DNA of 64,000 bases from an uncultured Thermodesulfobacteriota bacterium. Its GTDB lineage: Bacteria; Desulfobacterota; WTBG01; CAIYCZ01. A program made the position numbers and the translations under genes. Positions 29,590 through 42,679 of this stretch are shown piece after piece. Position 1 is the stretch's first letter. Each line of letters starts with the position of its first letter. The notes under the pieces are model-generated. The model saw only the letters and a program-made list of their open reading frames with translations, was not told the DNA's origin and made no database searches. The stretch covers positions 1,290 through 65,289 of the forward strand of contig CAZQKW010000017.1 of NCBI GenBank assembly GCA_964594075.1. Reading direction: 5' to 3'.

Positions 29590-31884
29590 ATGAAAATACT
29601 CAAGAGAGCTTTGATTATCATCGCATGCGGGGCAGTTGTTTTTGCCTTAGCAGTTTTGCTGTATGCTCAATTTACCCTGACGGAGAATAAGATACGTCAA
29701 ACCCTTGCGGCAGAAGTATCGCACTATCTGCGTCGGGATATGACCTGCAAGAACATTCAGGTGGGGTGGCTGGGAGGTATTGTACTGAAAGATGTAATTC
29801 TCCACAAATCTTTTCCCTGGGAAGAAGATGATATCCTTACGTGTCCAGAGATTTATCTGAAAGCGCGGCTTATTCCTCTATTGCTGGGAAAGCTGTTCAT
29901 AAAGGAAGTGCTGATTCAGGAGCCGCGCATTGCCCTGTTTCAAAAGGAACTGGGGCAGTATATAAGCCTATACGGAAACAGTGCGCAGCGCCGAGCATCG
30001 GCTGCCACAGGTCAGCAGCCGCCATTGCGGATGATTTTTCTGCCATCCAATCTTGCAGTTCACAACGGCTCGGTCGTGCTAAAAAGCACCATACGCGAAT
30101 TGCCGCAACCCATCAGCGTGTCGCTGGCTGATGTGAAGGTGCTGGTTACCAATGTTTCGCCGCTATTTTCCTTTCCGTTTACTATTTCGGCACGGGTTGT
30201 CGGACCTCAGCCGTCGCTGTTTACGTGCGACGGAGAAGTTTCGGTGCCGCGCCAGAAAATGACAGCACGTCTTTCTCTGGATAAAACCGATCTCTCCCAA
30301 TTCAGCAAATATTTTACCTTTTACCAAGTGCCCGTGAAAAGTGGCAGCGTCAAACTTGACGCGCAAATTAATTTTGCGGAACTTAAAGATTTCATGGTAA
30401 CCGGCTTGATTGATGTGCAAGATGTTGAAATGGGCATTGCTTCCTTTATTCATAGTGGCGTTGCTCACGAGGTTGTGTTGCAAGGAGCAAATGCAACGCT
30501 TAATTTTGCTGTGTTATGGAACATACCCGACCAGGTCATTACCTTTCAGAAACTTGAAGGTTCGGTATTGTCCGCTTCATTTTCAGGCGAAGGATCGGTA
30601 AAAAAATTAGGCACCGCACCATATATAAAATTGATATTAAAAGCGGACGATTTTCCTTTGGAAAATTTTTTCAGTCGCCTCTCTTCCAAGCTGCCCTGGA
30701 TGCTCGACGAGGCAAGCCTTTCGGGCAAAGCTGATTTGCGGCTGAATCTGGAGGGCGAGCTGCCTCAAGCTGTATTCACAAAGTTTAACGTTAATTTCAA
30801 AGGCAACCGGCTTAATTACAAACCGTTGGGCGGATTTCAGCCGGACATTGAAGGCACAGGTATGATTGATAACAGCAGAATTGCGCTGCGCGATTTAAAA
30901 ATCGGGATCAAGAGTTCAACCATAACGCTTGCGGGAGATATATTAAATTACTTGCAGGGGAATCCGCAGCCGGAAATCAAAATCGTAGCATCGCATATTA
31001 ATATCGCGGATTTCATGGTGCCGGGAACACGCGCCGAAGATGCGGAAAAAGAAGAAGTCGGGCCGTTTGACTTGAGGGGGCTAACGCTGGGCGGGCACAT
31101 AGACATGGGAGGCGTATCTTTTTTGGGGATGTCCATCAATAATCTGCGCGGCAATTATGTGCTCGCTGACAACCAGTTGTCCGTTAAAGAGCTTACCGGC
31201 ACTATTGGGCAGGGGCAGTTCAAACTTGAGGGTTTAGTCAACCTTGGGGTTAAAGGGCTTGATTATTCCCTGAGTCTCAACCTTGACCGCGCATCATGTA
31301 AGGAAATAGCGAAGATGATAAATCCGCTTTATGAAAACTTTGTTGACGGCATGATATCGGGCACGTGCACCCTGAAAGGAAACGGCGTCACACCGCTTCG
31401 GTTTGTTAAAAATCTTGAAGGAAGAGGCTTTTTTACTGTGCAGGATACACTGTTCAAAGGGGTGTCGTTGGGCACCATCGGATCTCTTTTGCGCATGGAT
31501 GGCAGCGAAGGCCTGCGCTTTGACCAGGGTCAGGTGCAGCTTAAACTTAATGATAGCACGGTAGATGTCAGCGGCGGATTTATAAATCCCGACCTGGCCG
31601 TATATCCGAACGGCACCATCAATTTTGACAGCTCGCTGCGCCTTGATACCATATTAAAACTTTCTCCGGCCTTTTCGCGCAGAATGATGAGCGAAAAAGT
31701 TCTTCAGTATTTTCCCCAGGAAGACGGATGGATTGCACTGCCCATAGAAATTAGGGGAACGCTTTATGAGCCCCAAATTTCCCTGTCAAAAGAGGTGCTG
31801 AATATTTTTATTGAAAAAGTCATGCCGGCTGTCTTGAATGAGATGCTTAAGGAACATCAGGGGCAGGGCGGGGCTTCTGAATAA
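29590..31884 (+). CDS. AsmA family protein
   Basis: Single N-terminal TM, beta-rich repeats, C-terminal LPIEIRGTLYEPQ. Confidence 0.8.
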   Translation: MKILKRALIIIACGAVVFALAVLLYAQFTLTENKIRQTLAAEVSHYLRRDMTCKNIQVGWLGGIVLKDVILHKSFPWEEDDILTCPEIYLKARLIPLLLGKLFIKEVLIQEPRIALFQKELGQYISLYGNSAQRRASAATGQQPPLRMIFLPSNLAVHNGSVVLKSTIRELPQPISVSLADVKVLVTNVSPLFSFPFTISARVVGPQPSLFTCDGEVSVPRQKMTARLSLDKTDLSQFSKYFTFYQVPVKSGSVKLDAQINFAELKDFMVTGLIDVQDVEMGIASFIHSGVAHEVVLQGANATLNFAVLWNIPDQVITFQKLEGSVLSASFSGEGSVKKLGTAPYIKLILKADDFPLENFFSRLSSKLPWMLDEASLSGKADLRLNLEGELPQAVFTKFNVNFKGNRLNYKPLGGFQPDIEGTGMIDNSRIALRDLKIGIKSSTITLAGDILNYLQGNPQPEIKIVASHINIADFMVPGTRAEDAEKEEVGPFDLRGLTLGGHIDMGGVSFLGMSINNLRGNYVLADNQLSVKELTGTIGQGQFKLEGLVNLGVKGLDYSLSLNLDRASCKEIAKMINPLYENFVDGMISGTCTLKGNGVTPLRFVKNLEGRGFFTVQDTLFKGVSLGTIGSLLRMDGSEGLRFDQGQVQLKLNDSTVDVSGGFINPDLAVYPNGTINFDSSLRLDTILKLSPAFSRRMMSEKVLQYFPQEDGWIALPIEIRGTLYEPQISLSKEVLNIFIEKVMPAVLNEMLKEHQGQGGASE

Positions 31885-36888: not shown

Positions 36889-39800
36889 ATGAAGAAGAAA
36901 AATACTATTATACTATTGTCCTCAATAGCGGGTATTTTTTGCGTGGTTATCGTTTTATCACTGCTTGCGCCTGCTTTCATAACTCAAGAAATCATTACCA
37001 AGAAGATTGTCCAGGAACTATCCCAAAAGCTCGATGCCGAGGTGCAGGTAAAACGTAGCGGGCTGTCTATATTCCCGCGCCCGCGTGTTGCGGCGTATGA
37101 ACTAACCGTAATTTTTAGCGACCGGGCGACGCTGAATATCGCCGAAGCGCAGCTCTACCCGGCACTTTTACCGCTTCTTAACGGGACAGTTCAGCCAGCG
37201 CATATTCATGTCATTGCGCCGCATCTAAGCTTCTCGATGCCGTCATACCAAACAGCTCCGCCCGCGCTGGGGCACGATGTTACCATAGCAGGCATTCAGA
37301 AGCGCGCCGCAGAAAGTATCAGGAAGGTGCTGCACACCGCCCCGTTGAGTTCTGTTGTGGTGAGCGGAGGAGACATACAAATCACTGCCGGCGAAAATAC
37401 GTTGTTCAGCTTCAGCGGTGTCCGCGGGCAACTACAATGCGCCACGGACCGCGCGTCAGTTACCATTCGATGCGGATCAAACATGTGGAAGAAAGCGGCG
37501 CTCCAGGCTGCTGTACTCTTCAGCGATATGCAACTTGACGGCACGGTCTCTTTCTCCGAGCTTGATCTCCACCCAATACTTAAATATGTTTCTCCCGACG
37601 CCTTCTCCATTGTGAAGTCTGTTATAGACGGGGAAGGCAGCATTGTAGTTGATACGTCCGGCTTGATCGGCGCACGTTTTAAGGTCGCCGTCCCCTCCCT
37701 GTCTGTCAATAAACAGGGAGAGCAACAGATTATTAAGGGTGCATTGCAATCAGTAGGGTTGAAGACTGACTTACAGAATACCTTTGTCGCTGTTGCCGGA
37801 ATATTTGAATACCCTCTGCTTAACGTTTCAGGCACGTGCAGCATAGAAACCGCGCAGCGCACCATTCGTTTTGAAGGGGAAGGGAAAAATATCGATTTAG
37901 GTTCATGTGCAGAGGTTGCCGGGTCTTTTTTCAGACAGCAACCACAGTTCAGAGAAATTGCCGGCCGGATAAAAGGCGGCACCTTTTCCGATGTCTCGTT
38001 CAAGGCACAGGGGCCGCTGGGTTTAGATATTGTCGGCAATAAGAACTTTGTGCTGCGCGGAAGATTATCCCGCGGCCATCTGGTGATTACAGAAGCAAAC
38101 AGTGAGGTTGAAGACTTAAGCGCTGATGTTACTGCGCAGAATGGCATTCTGGTAGCACAGAACATTCATGCCCGCTGTGGGCAGTCGCGCATTGATAACG
38201 GCTCGGTGCAGATTGATCTTTCCCGGCAATATAAACCGCTGCTGATTGACACTGAATTTACCGCTGATGTCTCGCAGTTGCCCCGTTTTCTGCATCTTAT
38301 CCCGGAAAGCATCGTGCGACGAGAGCTTTCGCTTATTCAAAATCCTCAAGGGACGGGCAGCGGACGGTTTACGATGCGCGCTATGCGTGATTCCCATTTC
38401 ATAGACATAGACCTGACTGGGTTGCGCCTGGAGGCGCGTTACCGCTCATTTCCCATGCCATTGAAACTGAGCAAGGGACAATGCGCCTATCAGAACGGCA
38501 TACTGTCATTTAGTGATGTTTCCGGAATCCTGGGCAAGTCAATGGTTCAACATACCGCAGCATCTTTCAATCTGGGGAATGCCCCGGCCTTGAGTATCGC
38601 AACGAACGATGCAACGGTTGACCTTGAAGAACTGCGGATGGCGCTTAATTCATTTCCTGCAACGCACCGTATTATCCGCGATATTACCCGCTTAACGGGT
38701 CAACTTACCATTCGTTCTTTAGCAATTAATGGGCCGTTGCGCAGTCCTCAACAATGGAAATTTATGCTGCGGGGGGAAGTCCGAGATGCACAACTGGCGG
38801 CAACACAACTGGAAAGTGCGGCAACCATTAAAAACGCCACCCTGCAGATTAATCAGGATGTATTTTCCATGATTGGCGCGCACGCTGAGTATCTTGACAG
38901 CAGCCTCAAAGGAACGCTTTACCTTAAAGATTATCTGCAGGGCATCACGAGCCTTAAACTCACCGCCCGAGGATCAGTCGGACAGAAATCTGTGCTGCAG
39001 ATAATGGACTTAATTAACGCACCGGCAGAACTTGTGCCTCATGGGCCGTTGTTATTCAAACAGTCGCAGCTTATCTGGACGCGAAACGGCCTGACGGAAT
39101 TTAACGGCGATTTTTCCTGCGCCCGCGGTCCGCAGATTGTTGTTTCTATGCAGGCTCAGCCACAGACGCTGGAGATCAAAAAACTCCAGATTACCGATCA
39201 GGCCTCGGAGATCCTCATCAGCCTGGGCATGCAAAAAGATTTTTTTGATTTTACATTTAAGGGTCATATTGAAAAAGCCACTGTGGATCGTGTGCTCCTT
39301 AATAATCAACTGATGAACGGCTGGATTAATGGGGATATGACGGCACGTCTGAATTGGAGCAATCCTCTGCATTCAACCGCCACGGGAACGCTGGCGTGGG
39401 AAGATATACAGCACCCCCGCATTGATACTTTTCCGCTTAATATTAAAAGCGCATCCCTTACTGCGCAAGGCAAGAAACTCACGATTAAGAACGCTCAGGT
39501 TACCGCCGGATCAAGCACCGGCACAGCAGAAGGCAGTATCGTATTCGAGAGGGAAGGGTACATTCTTGATCTGCAGCTTGCTGCAAACCGCCTCAACCTT
39601 GATGAATTCCATATCATGGCAACGCGCAACAGCAGCGACGGCGGTGAAAAGAATCTGTGGGAAATACCTGTGCGCGGCACGGTTCTGCTCACCGCTCAAT
39701 CGCTCAGCTTGGGACCGCTGGCATGGCGCCCGTTCCATGCTACAATTACCGTTGCAGACCGGAAAATAACAGTTGCCGCTATTGATTCAAAATTGTGCAG

Positions 39801-40515
39801 CATCGAAACACCAGGCACGATAGTTGTGGCCCCCGGCGGAATGCACATTTCAGCTCAACCGGCAGTTCAAAACGCTTCGGCACGAGAGATTATTCAGTGT
39901 GTAACCGGCAAACGAGCTGTTATTAGCGGCAGAATTAATCTGCAGGGTGATTTTGTAGCGCACGGTTCTGCGGATGACGTAATGAACACCCTCAGGGGAA
40001 ACCTCTCAATTGTTGCCCGCAAGGGCCGGATTTATCGTTCCAATCTGTTCACCAACATCCTGTCCTTTTTGAGCGTTAGGAATCTTATCTTGGGAAGAAA
40101 AGCCGATATTGCAGAAAAAGGATTTGCCTACCGATCGCTCTCCATTAACGGTGAATTTCACGGCAATACTTTCAAGATACATGAGGGTGTTTTAGACAGC
40201 AATACCTTGAGTCTTGCCTGTGAAGGCACGTATAACCTCTCCAATAAACGCATGGATTTAACGGTGCTGGCAACACCATTTCAAATTTACGATCTGGTGT
40301 TAATGAGTGTCCCGGTGGTGGGCATGGTTTTTGGCAGGACGCTTATTGGCGTGCCGATACGGGTGACCGGCGCGCTGGACGATCCGAAACTCGGGCCTGG
40401 AAATCCCGCAGCCATACCACGGGGTATTTTGGGCATTTTCAAAAATATTGTTAAACTTCCCGTAAGAATAATTGAACCGATTATGCCGCAGAAGGATTCT
40501 GAAAACAGGAGGTAA
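36889..40515 (+). CDS. Large AsmA-like / YhdP-like protein
   Basis: 1208 aa, N-terminal anchor, beta-rich, C-terminal GTYNL..MDLTV.. and PIRVTGALDDP. Confidence 0.75.
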   Translation: MKKKNTIILLSSIAGIFCVVIVLSLLAPAFITQEIITKKIVQELSQKLDAEVQVKRSGLSIFPRPRVAAYELTVIFSDRATLNIAEAQLYPALLPLLNGTVQPAHIHVIAPHLSFSMPSYQTAPPALGHDVTIAGIQKRAAESIRKVLHTAPLSSVVVSGGDIQITAGENTLFSFSGVRGQLQCATDRASVTIRCGSNMWKKAALQAAVLFSDMQLDGTVSFSELDLHPILKYVSPDAFSIVKSVIDGEGSIVVDTSGLIGARFKVAVPSLSVNKQGEQQIIKGALQSVGLKTDLQNTFVAVAGIFEYPLLNVSGTCSIETAQRTIRFEGEGKNIDLGSCAEVAGSFFRQQPQFREIAGRIKGGTFSDVSFKAQGPLGLDIVGNKNFVLRGRLSRGHLVITEANSEVEDLSADVTAQNGILVAQNIHARCGQSRIDNGSVQIDLSRQYKPLLIDTEFTADVSQLPRFLHLIPESIVRRELSLIQNPQGTGSGRFTMRAMRDSHFIDIDLTGLRLEARYRSFPMPLKLSKGQCAYQNGILSFSDVSGILGKSMVQHTAASFNLGNAPALSIATNDATVDLEELRMALNSFPATHRIIRDITRLTGQLTIRSLAINGPLRSPQQWKFMLRGEVRDAQLAATQLESAATIKNATLQINQDVFSMIGAHAEYLDSSLKGTLYLKDYLQGITSLKLTARGSVGQKSVLQIMDLINAPAELVPHGPLLFKQSQLIWTRNGLTEFNGDFSCARGPQIVVSMQAQPQTLEIKKLQITDQASEILISLGMQKDFFDFTFKGHIEKATVDRVLLNNQLMNGWINGDMTARLNWSNPLHSTATGTLAWEDIQHPRIDTFPLNIKSASLTAQGKKLTIKNAQVTAGSSTGTAEGSIVFEREGYILDLQLAANRLNLDEFHIMATRNSSDGGEKNLWEIPVRGTVLLTAQSLSLGPLAWRPFHATITVADRKITVAAIDSKLCSIETPGTIVVAPGGMHISAQPAVQNASAREIIQCVTGKRAVISGRINLQGDFVAHGSADDVMNTLRGNLSIVARKGRIYRSNLFTNILSFLSVRNLILGRKADIAEKGFAYRSLSINGEFHGNTFKIHEGVLDSNTLSLACEGTYNLSNKRMDLTVLATPFQIYDLVLMSVPVVGMVFGRTLIGVPIRVTGALDDPKLGPGNPAAIPRGILGIFKNIVKLPVRIIEPIMPQKDSENRR

Positions 40516-40810: not shown

Positions 40811-42538
40811 TTAAACGCCCCAAAATGAATCAATTTCTTCAGAGGTAAAATCCCACACCACATTATGCGGCGGACACGGCTCGTCAAAGAACTCCGGTAA
40901 GCGGTCATGTGTGTTGCTGAAACCGGCCGCAATATTAAATTCATGTTCGGTTCGCAGTATTTTTCTGCCCAGCGTGCGACCGTCATCTGCCGTCATTTCT
41001 AAATCATATTTGGCGTTAATCATATCAAAGACCAGAGAAAACACTTCCGGCTTATCCAACAGGGGGAACATAACGAAAATACAAAGGCCGGTACTGTCGA
41101 TTAACGCAGTGCCGATCTGCAATTTTCGTGAAAGTTCAACTTCGCCTTCTTTCCGCAACGGATCAACAAAACCCCCGATTCGTAATATGTTTACCGGGAT
41201 ACAGTAACCAGCAGTATGGTCGGCGCCCATCGTTGACGTCGCATAGGTTATCCCCATACCTTTTACCGGCCGTGGATCATAAGCGGGCAGGGCCTGATTT
41301 TTTACCACCGGGACTCTGGTCACACCGTATGCTCTGCCGACCGCTGCGGCACCCGAGCCAATGATTCTCCCCAGAGGAGTGCCCTCGCTGATTTCTTTAA
41401 GCAGGCGGAGCGCACCGGCACCGTCGCCAAAAGGTATGATTCCGGCTTCCATCGCAACACCAATTGCCACAGCGGTTTCTATTGTGTCAATGCCAATATC
41501 ATCGAGAAGGTGGTCTATTTCAGCAATAATGTCCAGATCTTCTATGCAGCAGTTGGCGCCAAAGCCCCAAATTGTTTCATATTCAAAGCCGGATGTCACG
41601 TAATTGCCATTTTTGTCGTTATATACCTGTGAACATTGTATGACACATCCTGCATGGCAGGCATGATGCGGTTTGCCGTTTCGATTTAAAATAGTTTCAC
41701 GCATGGTTTCGCCGCTTATTTTCTCAGCCGCTGCAAATCTGCCGTAATGAAAATTTCGGGTTGGAAGTCCTCCTGATTCGTTCAATATGTTTACCAGCAC
41801 ATCGGTCCCATACGTCTTCAGTGCCTGGCCACTTACCGGATGATCGACCAACGCCTTTGCAAACGCACGGGCAGCGATCTTAAATTTTTCCTGGTCAAAG
41901 ATTTTTACTCCGGGTCCATCAGTGGGATCTATGGTGATATATTTGACTTTTTTGGAACCCATAACGGCGCCCAATCCGCCGCGGCCATGGCTGCGAATAT
42001 AACCATCAGGATCCTTTACCGAAATATTAGCAGCCACCAGGCGTTTTTCCCCAGCGGGGCCGATGGACAGCATACCGGTTTTATCTCCATGTTTTTTTAT
42101 GAGCGTTTTCATGACGGCATAATTTCCCTTGCCGACTAATGTTTTTTCCTCCTGAATTGCGACGCCATCTTTAGTAACATGAAGACCATACCATGCATCT
42201 TTTTCCGGCAGTCCCTCAATAATAAGCGCTTTAATGCCTAACCGGGCAAGACACTGGGCAGCCGTGCCCCCCGCGTTGCTCTCTTTTATGGTGCCGGTCA
42301 GCGGACTTTTAGCACCCGCAGAAAGCCGTCCAGAATTTGGACATGTGGTTCCGCCAAGCATACCGGGAGCAAAGACCAGCTTATTCTGAGCGCCCAGCGG
42401 ATTGCAGGTCGGATTCACTTCATGGGCAACAATATTAGACGTCAACCCTCTGCCGCCGAGCACGCTCCATTTCTCCGGAACATCCTCAACTGTTGCCGTA
42501 AGCGTCGTCATGTTAACGCGATAAATTTTCTCTGCCAT
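40811..42538 (-). CDS. aor: Aldehyde:ferredoxin oxidoreductase (W-bis-pterin AOR family)
   Basis: KSPLTG.IKESNAGG, GRGGLGAVMGSK, CHAGCVIQC, EYET, D.IGIDTIE, GADHT. Confidence 0.93.
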   Translation of the reverse strand: MAEKIYRVNMTTLTATVEDVPEKWSVLGGRGLTSNIVAHEVNPTCNPLGAQNKLVFAPGMLGGTTCPNSGRLSAGAKSPLTGTIKESNAGGTAAQCLARLGIKALIIEGLPEKDAWYGLHVTKDGVAIQEEKTLVGKGNYAVMKTLIKKHGDKTGMLSIGPAGEKRLVAANISVKDPDGYIRSHGRGGLGAVMGSKKVKYITIDPTDGPGVKIFDQEKFKIAARAFAKALVDHPVSGQALKTYGTDVLVNILNESGGLPTRNFHYGRFAAAEKISGETMRETILNRNGKPHHACHAGCVIQCSQVYNDKNGNYVTSGFEYETIWGFGANCCIEDLDIIAEIDHLLDDIGIDTIETAVAIGVAMEAGIIPFGDGAGALRLLKEISEGTPLGRIIGSGAAAVGRAYGVTRVPVVKNQALPAYDPRPVKGMGITYATSTMGADHTAGYCIPVNILRIGGFVDPLRKEGEVELSRKLQIGTALIDSTGLCIFVMFPLLDKPEVFSLVFDMINAKYDLEMTADDGRTLGRKILRTEHEFNIAAGFSNTHDRLPEFFDEPCPPHNVVWDFTSEEIDSFWGV

Positions 42539-42572
42539 AATTCCTCCCTTTTCAATTTAGTGAAAGTTTCTG

Positions 42573-42679
42573 ATAACTCTCCTTTCCCAAAGGGAGGCCC
42601 TGCTGTTTCCAGCAAAACCCTGTGGCCTGTTACCGTGAGAGCATTAGCATTCTTTTAGGTTCAGAGGCTCGGAGATTAT
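42573..42679 (-). ncRNA. Moco RNA motif riboswitch, P3-less (Tuco-type) variant
   Basis: CUCCGAGC, P2 (CUCUG.ACC..GGU..CAG), GGCC-AC-AGGG, a GAAA-tetraloop stem (UUUUGCUG/CAGCAGGG), then CCUCCC..GGGAAAGGAG. P1 closes AUAAUCUCC/GGAGAGUUAU. Directly upstream of aor. Confidence 0.85.

Follow-up and report, generated by a model that had tools for sequence, protein, structure and literature searches.

The window, meaning the whole 64 kb stretch of DNA that was analysed, carries on its minus strand an aldehyde:ferredoxin oxidoreductase (AOR) gene (40811-42538) that encodes 575 amino acids and is apparently monocistronic. The gene product combines the Pfam domains AFOR_N (1.9e-63) and AFOR_C (1.3e-76). 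Its best PDB matches are tungsten AORs (9mqx_D, 1.9e-91; 1aor_A, 2.4e-83; 9g7j; 8c0z), in agreement with an earlier note, made from the sequence alone, that had named an AOR gene here. The AUG start codon (42538-42536) is preceded by AAUU (4 nt) and a Shine-Dalgarno (SD) box, AAAGGGAGG (42543-42551, minus strand). This box would need a bulged G to pair with the usual 16S tail CCUCCUUU, whereas its fit to the core of the upstream aptamer is 9/9. The gap between aptamer and gene is 24 nt, and the linker holds a pyrimidine box, AACUUUC (42562-42568, minus strand), that was recognized from the pairs of the minimum free energy (MFE) fold, the alignment and RNAalifold. A search 5' of the aptamer gave no convincing promoter or transcription start, the only minus-strand match being 42947-42920 (9/12), and no terminator or attenuator was found in the window leader.

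The aptamer was identified using cmscan with Rfam 15. RF01055, the Moco/Tuco aptamer, was the sole match in the 64 kb (42686-42563, minus strand), with 69.3 bits (E 1.3e-14) against a gathering score of 36 and model positions 1-135 (full length) covered. The match is certainly beyond chance. The conserved blocks CCGAGC, AGGG, CCUCCC and GGAAAGG are all present in the leader with high posterior probability in the Rfam alignment. By this alignment and direct reading, the P1 5' strand is UCUCC (42671-42675, minus strand like all features of the leader), followed by the conserved GA-GCC junction. P2 (42625-42668; Rfam alignment, RNAalifold) has a CCUAA bulge at 42659-42655, and P4 (42595-42620; reading, Rfam alignment, folding) is an 11 bp helix capped by GAAA at 42609-42606; together they provide the tetraloop/receptor pair. 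The 3' tail GGGAAAGGAGA (42578-42588) aligns as the P5 3' strand, the AAA junction J5/1 and the P1 3' strand. RNAalifold recovered P1, P2, P4 and P5 on 6 related leaders, with one compensatory pair in P2.

The P3 columns of the RF01055 model are aligned to gaps. By direct reading GGCC (42627-42624), AC (42623-42622) and AGGG (42621-42618) are contiguous on the minus strand, with a CACA junction (42621-42624) in place of P3, and because they are contiguous the leader RNA has no P3. The P3-less Moco-RNA-like fold of the earlier note, with only AC between GGCC and AGGG, is thus confirmed; its start lies 7 nt inside the Rfam 5' end, a difference of no consequence. The RNA belongs with the P3-less subgroup, proposed to sense Tuco, in which P3 is absent and the linked gene serves tungsten-cofactor use, tungsten-cofactor synthesis or tungstate transport, and not with the Moco-type RNAs that carry an E. 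coli moaA-like P3. In short, the leader element is a P3-less Moco/Tuco aptamer directly 5' of an AOR-family gene. It is of a known kind, since P3-less aptamers 5' of AOR genes have already been published. P3-less Moco RNAs were linked to Tuco users by Regulski 2008 (PMC2408646), in line with the link stated in the earlier note. No structure of the family was available by the time of a 2024 review (PMC11672702).

The window RNA and the E. coli moaA Moco RNA (RF01055; PMC2408646) have in common P1, P2 with its tetraloop receptor, P4 with its GAAA loop and P5, as well as the conserved blocks CCGAGC, AGGG, CCUCCC and GGAAAGGAG. Besides the loss of P3, they differ in what lies downstream. The window gene consumes the cofactor whereas moaA makes it, and the window SD lies ~27 nt beyond P1 whereas the moaA SD is inside the P1 3' strand. 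In the published work covered here gene control in the RF01055 family was tested only for the moaA RNA, where OFF control was demonstrated (PMC2408646). Unlike moaA, the window RNA is predicted to be ON.

This prediction starts from the segment CCUCCCUUU (42597-42589, minus strand), composed of the core CCUCCC and the first three P5-loop bases UUU. It is the exact 9-nt complement of the SD box (42551-42543), at the coordinates that the earlier note had given, and on the basis of this match and of folding it is a candidate anti-SD. In the aptamer fold CCUCCC forms the base of P4 (CCU) and P5 (CC), and folding makes the core:SD helix and the aptamer mutually exclusive at both places. The layout is that of a translational ON switch: the SD is outside the aptamer and complementary to a segment paired in the aptamer fold, and a terminator is absent. 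In the window AAAGGGAGG occurs only at the two complementary sites (0.59 expected), a count that is weak by itself because 9/100 shuffles reach at least 2. Furthermore, 4-5 of the 9 core:SD pairs come free with any SD because CCUCC is intrinsically anti-SD-like.

From these pairings and the modelled folds we lean toward the view that the aptamer in the AOR 5' UTR works as a translational ON switch. In the ligand-free state the 3' half of the aptamer would refold with the leader. CCUCCCUUU would pair with the SD box, the tail GGAGAGUU would pair with AACUUUC (42568-42562), and the two pairings together would bury the ribosome-binding site. With tungsten cofactor bound, CCUCCC would be held in the P4 base and P5 and the tail in P1, which would leave the A/U-rich linker and the SD nearly single-stranded so that AOR apoprotein could be made. 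We infer which ligand is bound, that the two folds exchange in vivo and in which direction expression responds. A precedent for such logic is the Vibrio vulnificus add adenine riboswitch: an aptamer strand pairs with the SD region when the RNA is free, ligand captures the strand and frees the SD, and no terminator is involved. The logic proposed for the window is the same and a terminator is absent here too, although aptamer and ligand are unrelated. The strand captured in the window RNA would be the aptamer's most conserved junction, whereas in add it is mainly the P1 3' strand.

The core:SD helix is present in both the MFE and the centroid structure of 42700-42520, with a duplex energy of -13.7 kcal/mol; its six inner pairs have probabilities of 0.86-0.99 and its three outer pairs of 0.53-0.63. 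It dominates the predicted free ensemble of the window leader. The partner of the tail GGGAAAGGAGA in the predicted free fold is 42568-42560, not the P1 5' strand. In an energy model with no terms for tertiary structure, ligand or folding during transcription, the ensemble energy was -48.4 kcal/mol free and -40.7 kcal/mol with the aptamer enforced, and opening the SD hexamer cost 5.7 and 1.4 kcal/mol respectively (difference +4.3). SD-opening free energy superseded mean unpaired SD probability, which gave small and noisy differences under an SD definition that missed GGGAG. The opening measure is an artefact where the SD is inside P1, and its values for such leaders were ignored; leaders whose P1 was not parsed by the regex (L002, L003, L127, L180, L182, L187, L246) were left out of the energy tables. 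A hard constraint forbidding core:SD pairs was discarded as its energy was implausible.

For 41 AOR leaders among the matches listed the mean opening-cost difference was +2.65 kcal/mol; 29 of them exceeded +1 and one fell under -1. The 31 listed non-AOR leaders whose SD is distant gave -0.25 kcal/mol. Values of about zero or below came from three close relatives (L021, L248, L249). Chimeras that joined the window aptamer and linker to the RBS regions of 87 listed riboswitch-less AOR orthologues gave +1.96 +/- 1.9 kcal/mol, and the native +4.3 kcal/mol falls only in the top 8% of chimera values. About half of the modelled SD-opening effect is thus generic to any SD behind the window aptamer. 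As the chimeras with foreign SDs indicate, much of the modelled signal is generic because CCUCC is anti-SD-like.

The generic effect is one reason to consider that the aptamer is real and the core:SD complementarity incidental. AAAGGGAGG would then be the ancestral SD of the AOR lineage, and any control would act at another level, for example Rho-dependent termination or mRNA stability, or the switch would be weakly functional. We regard this as unlikely, though several observations fit it. The invariant CCUCC will match any strong SD, and SDs of the same type (AAAGGGAG) occur in AOR orthologues without an aptamer within 700 nt (L172, L173, L188, L207, L234). Some relatives are decayed or degenerate (L245, L002, L003). 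Core:SD covariation is weak: across 40 leaders 76.8% of cells were paired versus 74.8% in shuffled data (the observed share was reached in 24/500 shuffles), and two-sided changes were found in 14 cells versus 7.3 (38/500). Six of the nine pairs are invariant in the window clade.

Against an incidental match, complementarity is far above that of background genes and riboswitch-less orthologues. Core:SD complementarity of at least 8 nt was found in 12/36 listed AOR leaders versus 0.6-0.7% of the background, namely 857 other genes from related loci whose SD could be recognised. Extension past the trivial CUCC:GGAG averaged 2.0, versus 0.58 in listed riboswitch-less AOR orthologues (p = 1.6e-6). 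Related leaders do not count as independent observations. Within the window clade GGGAG is present in 12/12 leaders that have an aptamer or an identifiable remnant of one and in 2/13 that have neither, and a 92%-identical orthologue that lacks the aptamer has CGGAGGAA in place of AAAGGGAGG. The window aptamer itself, at 69 bits, has every helix intact. Of the conservation check proposed in the earlier note, the recurrence of complementarity in orthologous leaders held up, and the covariation of anti-SD:SD pairs came out weak.

An incidental match is also difficult to reconcile with the platform behind the aptamer, which is kept in position in AOR leaders while the linker sequence varies. More than 50 P3-less AOR leaders were found. 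Among the matches listed, 2/46 AOR leaders have a terminator and 0/46 have the SD inside P1. Terminators were found in 50/75 listed non-AOR leaders and 18 more have an SD within ~30 nt of the core, which places it in the P1 3' strand or beside it; either OFF design occurs in 68 of 93 other listed leaders matching the P3-less pattern, and both the 75 and the 93 still include false-positive matches, some apparently inside coding regions (L063, L075, L093) and some that do contain P3 (L084, L091, L095, L099). The non-AOR classes are TupA, MoaA, permease, MoeA, porin, TauE, MoaC and Aldedh, covering tungstate transport, cofactor synthesis and others. Platform type differs between AOR and non-AOR classes among the listed leaders (Fisher p = 7e-16). 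AOR genes have their own platform design across many genomes. The OFF platforms (tupA, moaA, moeA, porin, TauE and Aldedh leaders) share the P3-less aptamer and carry an intrinsic terminator, its 5' arm often with CCUUUCC, or a start codon no more than ~30 nt from the core; apart from the 2/46 with terminators, AOR leaders have neither. The same P3-less aptamer on an OFF platform sometimes shares a contig with an AOR copy (L088, L104, L106, L162).

The pyrimidine box of the linker offers a route to the opposite polarity, since it complements the aptamer tail (GAAAG / GAGAGUU) and also, via G-U pairs, GGGAG of the SD. In a sequestor/antisequestor arrangement, bound cofactor would lock the tail GGAAAGGAG in P1 and leave CUUUC (42566-42562) free to pair with GGGAG and hide the SD; without cofactor the tail would pair with the CUUUC box and release the SD. 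The E. limosum WOR1 leader has been described in these same terms (PMC11725836). RNAalifold on six window-clade leaders gave the aptamer plus a hairpin that joins columns 133-137 (CUUUC, CUUCC or UUUCC) to GGGAG, and the box, which is also complementary to the tail, is kept in one of these forms in 5/6 of the aligned leaders. Another point for it is L018 (Desulfobotulus), where the hairpin is strong, the core variant CCACCC weakens core:SD pairing and the modelled difference is -2.4 kcal/mol.

For the window we felt that a translational OFF switch of this type was improbable. With the aptamer enforced, opening the SD against the box:SD hairpin costs 11.1 kcal/mol in L018 and 3.6-5.7 kcal/mol in L021 and L249; the window hairpin consists of 5 pairs, including two G-U pairs, around a 13-nt loop and opens for the 1.4 kcal/mol given above, versus 5.7 in the free ensemble. 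Release of the tail would leave the 9-bp core:SD helix unhindered, and the SD would therefore be buried even when no ligand is bound. The pyrimidine box is missing from Geobacter-type AOR leaders, which nevertheless keep 8-9 nt of core:SD complementarity. Finally, repression of a cofactor-dependent enzyme when cofactor is plentiful sits poorly with Pelobacter carbinolicus, in which the W-type AOR proteins Pcar_0456 and Pcar_0665 were more abundant in tungstate-rich medium by proteomics (PMC4275255). Moco riboswitches were reported for the aorA genes that bear these locus tags (PMC3543383); the P. carbinolicus leaders are not among the matches listed here. The tungstate induction could alternatively reflect apoprotein instability or transcriptional control.

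The translational ON switch proposed in the earlier note thus gains from the Rfam match, the recurring complementarity and the Pelobacter proteomics. It is held back by the generic half of the modelled effect, the weak covariation, SDs that are kept without a riboswitch, and a CUUUC box that allows OFF control. On the whole the modelled wiring of the leader suggests translation that is on with cofactor, unlike the OFF moaA RNA. P. carbinolicus aorA1-3 (PMC3543383) and Eubacterium limosum wor1 (PMC11725836) share with the window the aptamer subtype, the downstream gene family and, as proposed, control at the level of translation. Compared by description, the published accounts give no polarity or a sequestor/antisequestor scheme, and none names the CCUCCC core as anti-SD.

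A broader proposal, which we hold at about even chances, is that the Tuco riboswitches of AOR genes are an ON class of their own, with the invariant pocket sequence CCUCCC serving also as anti-SD. Related bacteria, and in some cases a single contig, would then carry the same aptamer in opposite wiring. With cofactor, the tungsten enzyme would be switched on while tungstate uptake and cofactor synthesis would be switched off, as would, in some spirochaetes, a tungsten-free NAD aldehyde dehydrogenase. If AOR leaders are ON, they would provide a positive-polarity genetic read-out of intracellular tungsten cofactor and make it possible to test directly whether P3-less RNAs sense Tuco, as has long been proposed. 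They would also explain how anaerobes avoid a large, cofactor-less Fe-S apoenzyme, and would show a conserved binding-pocket sequence put to a second use as anti-SD. If they are OFF or inert, the locus is one more annotated RF01055 member.

One AOR subclade (L074, L143, L144) has an SD region, GGG(G)AAAGGAG, that is a near-copy of the aptamer 3' tail GGAAAGGAG. Such a second copy could replace the proximal tail in the bound fold and be buried by P1, giving OFF control. For the window this is very improbable and the model was rejected, because no GG-AAA-GGAG register is present in the distal sequence UGAAAAGGGAGG; it may still apply to the L074 subclade. The proximal tail of the window aligns to the RF01055 model with high posterior probability, and either copy would give just 5 P1 pairs, so that nothing favours the distal one. 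In L156, of the same subclade as L074, the SD region reads AAAGGGCAAGGAG.

Scanning the window against all 4227 Rfam families (cmscan) gave a single match, the molybdenum/tungsten cofactor (Moco/Tuco) aptamer RF01055, at 42686-42563 on the minus strand (69.3 bits, where the gathering score is 36; E 1.3e-14). An earlier note had read a P3-less Moco/Tuco riboswitch here and named a search with the Rfam Moco RNA model as a check. The match was full length with gaps in the P3 columns. Helices P1, P2, P4 and P5 were all there, as were the CCUAA receptor of P2, the GAAA loop of P4 and the conserved blocks of the junction. The element is certainly a P3-less RF01055 aptamer. Direct reading of 42900-42300 placed the P3-less junction GGCC-AC-AGGG at 42627-42618, the core segment CCUCCCUUU at 42597-42589, and the Shine-Dalgarno (SD) box AAAGGGAGG at 42551-42543, followed by AAUU and the AUG at 42538, all on the minus strand; each sequence statement of the earlier note holds. 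A seven-codon frame including stop (AUG CUA AUG CUC UCA CGG UAA; 42633-42653, minus strand) lies inside the P2 loop; it lacks conservation in relatives and is probably due to chance.

The start codon opens a 575 aa aldehyde:ferredoxin oxidoreductase (AOR) ORF at 42538-40811 on the minus strand, with AFOR_N (1.9e-63) and AFOR_C (1.3e-76) domains. The closest solved structures are the AOR-family enzymes 9mqx, 1aor, 9g7j and 8c0z, the last titled tungsten-containing. The gene appears monocistronic, with a YhdP-like gene convergent and a pgm-pgi-gnd-pgl cluster divergent. The neighbouring genes examined, over about 26-54 kb of the window, included none for tungstate transport or the cofactor, and the leader yielded no terminator and no convincing promoter. 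Two large AsmA/YhdP-like envelope proteins are encoded within 10 kb of each other on the plus strand, at 29590-31884 and 36889-40515; the latter gene converges on the AOR gene.

In the proposed mechanism the aptamer core CCUCCC would serve as an anti-SD that covers the AOR SD when cofactor is absent, and the aptamer fold would release it, an ON switch. Folding of 42700-42520 put the core:SD helix in the MFE structure and the centroid alike. Its six inner pairs had probabilities of 0.86-0.99 and its three outer pairs, in competition with the P4 base, 0.53-0.63; the isolated duplex was calculated at -13.7 kcal/mol. The aptamer tail (42582-42575) pairs with 42568-42560 in the free fold. Opening the SD hexamer cost 5.7 kcal/mol in the free ensemble versus 1.4 kcal/mol with the aptamer enforced. 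The ensemble energy was -48.4 kcal/mol free and -40.7 kcal/mol once P1, P5 and the P4 base were enforced, a modelled gap of ∼7.7 kcal/mol that would fall to ligand and tertiary contacts.

The difference in opening energy (free minus enforced) averaged +2.65 kcal/mol in 41 AOR leaders (29 above +1, one below -1) and -0.25 kcal/mol in 31 non-AOR leaders with a distant SD. Values in the window's own clade were +4.3, +3.9, +3.4, +3.2, +3.2, +2.0, +1.6, +1.2, +0.6, +0.4 and -1.2. In 12/36 AOR leaders the SD region was complementary to the leader's own core over 8 nt or more, versus 0.6-0.7% of 857 background genes; GGGAG was present in 58% versus 10.7%. Pairing anchored on GGAG extended a mean of 2.0 positions further versus 0.58 in 73 riboswitch-less AOR orthologues (p = 1.6e-6; all p-values in this analysis are optimistic, since the leaders are related and so not independent of one another). 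In close relatives, those sharing 75% protein identity or more, GGGAG occurred in 12/12 leaders with an aptamer or recognisable remnant, including the remnant L002/L246, which has no recorded RF01055 match, versus 2/13 without (p = 2e-5). Two orthologues with unrelated, aptamer-free leaders, 92% (L269:150-400) and 79% (L252:150-400) identical, carry the SDs CGGAGGAA and AAGAGAGG respectively, not AAGGGAGG. The box AAAGGGAGG matches the core at 9/9 positions. Against the usual 16S tail, CCUCCUUU, which may not be that of the host, it needs a bulged G, and riboswitch-less AOR orthologues mostly use GGAGG or AAGGAGG. This pattern of matches suggests a box adapted to the aptamer and not to the ribosome.

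The complementarity might instead be incidental, which we consider unlikely given this enrichment, but several controls weaken the ON case. Chimeras in which the ribosome-binding regions of 87 riboswitch-less orthologues were grafted on the window aptamer and linker already gave +1.96 ± 1.9 kcal/mol, with the native value in the top 8%; owing to its two CUCC boxes, the unfolded aptamer tends to hide whatever SD follows it. Covariation of the anti-SD:SD pair in orthologous leaders, another check named beforehand, was marginal although complementarity was enriched. In an anchored 40-leader alignment 76.8% of cells were paired versus 74.8% shuffled (24/500), and 14 cells had changes on both sides versus 7.3 shuffled (38/500). 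Pair 10 of this alignment occurred as C-G, U-A and U-G, and 6/9 core:SD pairs never vary in the window clade. AAAGGGAG-type SDs are kept in five orthologues without an aptamer within 700 nt (L172, L173, L188, L207 and L234); these may reflect recent aptamer loss, and they show that the box is able to stand alone. A decaying riboswitch was seen in L245:1-252, which has no Rfam match: unrelated sequence stands in place of the aptamer 5' half while the 3' half survives, with the core mutated from CCUCCC to CCUCUC and the linker and SD box unchanged.

OFF control by a weak sequestor, in which a pyrimidine box pairs with GGGAG of the SD, was also considered and is doubtful for the window. RNAalifold on six window-clade leaders returned the aptamer plus a hairpin of a conserved box (CUUUC, CUUCC or UUUCC; window 42566-42562) with GGGAG. 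The box is complementary to the aptamer tail as well, the sequestor/antisequestor wiring described in 2024 for Eubacterium limosum wor1, where the upstream P3-less riboswitch has an RBS sequestor together with a complementary region that overlaps a helix of the aptamer (PMC11725836). The window hairpin, however, is weak, with a 13-nt loop and 5 pairs of which two are G-U. Geobacter-type leaders lack the box but retain 8-9 nt of core:SD complementarity, an arrangement explained by the ON reading alone. The hairpin is stronger in L021 and L249, and in Desulfobotulus alkaliphilus (L018:1350-1500) a strong hairpin, UCUUUCUUU:AAAGGAGGA, covers the SD while the core variant CCACCC weakens core:SD pairing. 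In contrast to most AOR leaders, this one resembles an OFF-type sequestor, so AOR-linked switches may not all share one polarity.

In Pelobacter carbinolicus the tungsten-type AOR proteins Pcar_0456 and Pcar_0665 were much more abundant in tungstate-rich than in molybdate-only medium by gels and mass fingerprinting (PMC4275255). These tags are aorA2 and aorA3, among three aor genes (aorA1-3) listed with Moco riboswitches in the genome paper (PMC3543383). The response matches the ON direction; apoprotein instability or transcriptional control could explain it too. The ON logic of the earlier note thus survives in part: complementarity was enriched and the SD was predicted to be hidden in the free ensemble, but covariation was marginal, much of the modelled effect was generic in the chimeras, and the box that could form an OFF hairpin is conserved. 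Based on modelling, enrichment and indirect physiology, we felt that the ON mechanism was the best-supported reading and somewhat probable.

Of the first 40 genomic loci with an AOR homologue, 8 had RF01055 in this same place, its end ∼24 nt short of the start codon. A pattern scan for the P3-less core gave at least 127 matches in at least 120 loci, with about one quarter of the matches listed directly before AOR genes. Recurrent non-AOR genes behind the listed matches, counted only where a downstream ORF was called, encode TupA-like binding proteins, MoaA, ABC permeases, MoeA, phosphate-type porin, TauE, MoaC and NAD aldehyde dehydrogenase. In line with the earlier note, Regulski et al. 2008 linked the P3-less RNAs with the making and use of Tuco, and discussed OFF logic alone (PMC2408646). 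The P3-less/AOR association is already in the literature, so the window element itself belongs to a known kind. Neither ON polarity nor CCUCCC as an anti-SD is proposed in the papers searched; if true, an ON platform using this core and specific to a cofactor-consuming enzyme would be new.

Platform design was compared in 46 unique AOR and 93 non-AOR leaders, all matching the same P3-less pattern. Intrinsic terminators occurred in 50/75 non-AOR leaders with a distant start codon versus terminator-like hairpins in 2/46 AOR leaders, one of them weak. In 18 further non-AOR leaders the start codon is at most 30 nt from the core, so that the SD falls in or beside the P1 3' strand; the SD is inside P1 in 0/46 AOR leaders. 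The split of designs by gene class gave a Fisher p of 7e-16. AOR leaders form a third design with a free-standing SD, usually about 25-45 nt beyond P1. Geobacter-type AOR leaders have a GC-rich hairpin of variable sequence between P1 and the SD, fixed directly after P1 and without a U tract (e.g. L060, L106, L162, L186, L208). A differing design was seen in a Peptococcaceae contig (L114:5250-5450), where the AOR start is 385 nt past the aptamer. There P1 is followed by a genuine terminator and, immediately beyond that, by a core-complementary GGGAGG box.

Terminator 5' arms in the non-AOR leaders of L045-L164 very often include CCUUUCC (e.g. L053, L088, L104, L115, L118, L120, L121), the complement of the aptamer tail GGAAAGG and classic antiterminator wiring for OFF control. 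Porin_O_P (phosphate-type porin) genes follow P3-less aptamers, usually with intrinsic terminators, in L082, L088, L104, L115 and L142, and TauE-family membrane protein genes do so in L085, L131, L145 and L159 (weak terminator-like hairpins in 2/4); both are candidates for tungstate or molybdate uptake. In two Spirochaetales metagenome genomes (L097:6352-6460 and L129:5844-5950) a P3-less aptamer of this type precedes an NAD-type aldehyde dehydrogenase gene by 23 nt; the Pfam Aldedh domain was shown for L097, with which L129 groups by BLAST. The SD there is the P1 3' strand itself, an OFF design, as if a tungsten-free isoenzyme were under reciprocal control. At L177:2987-3128 an M-box (magnesium) riboswitch (RF00380, 99.5 bits) was seen shortly downstream of an AOR orthologue that has no riboswitch, on the other strand.
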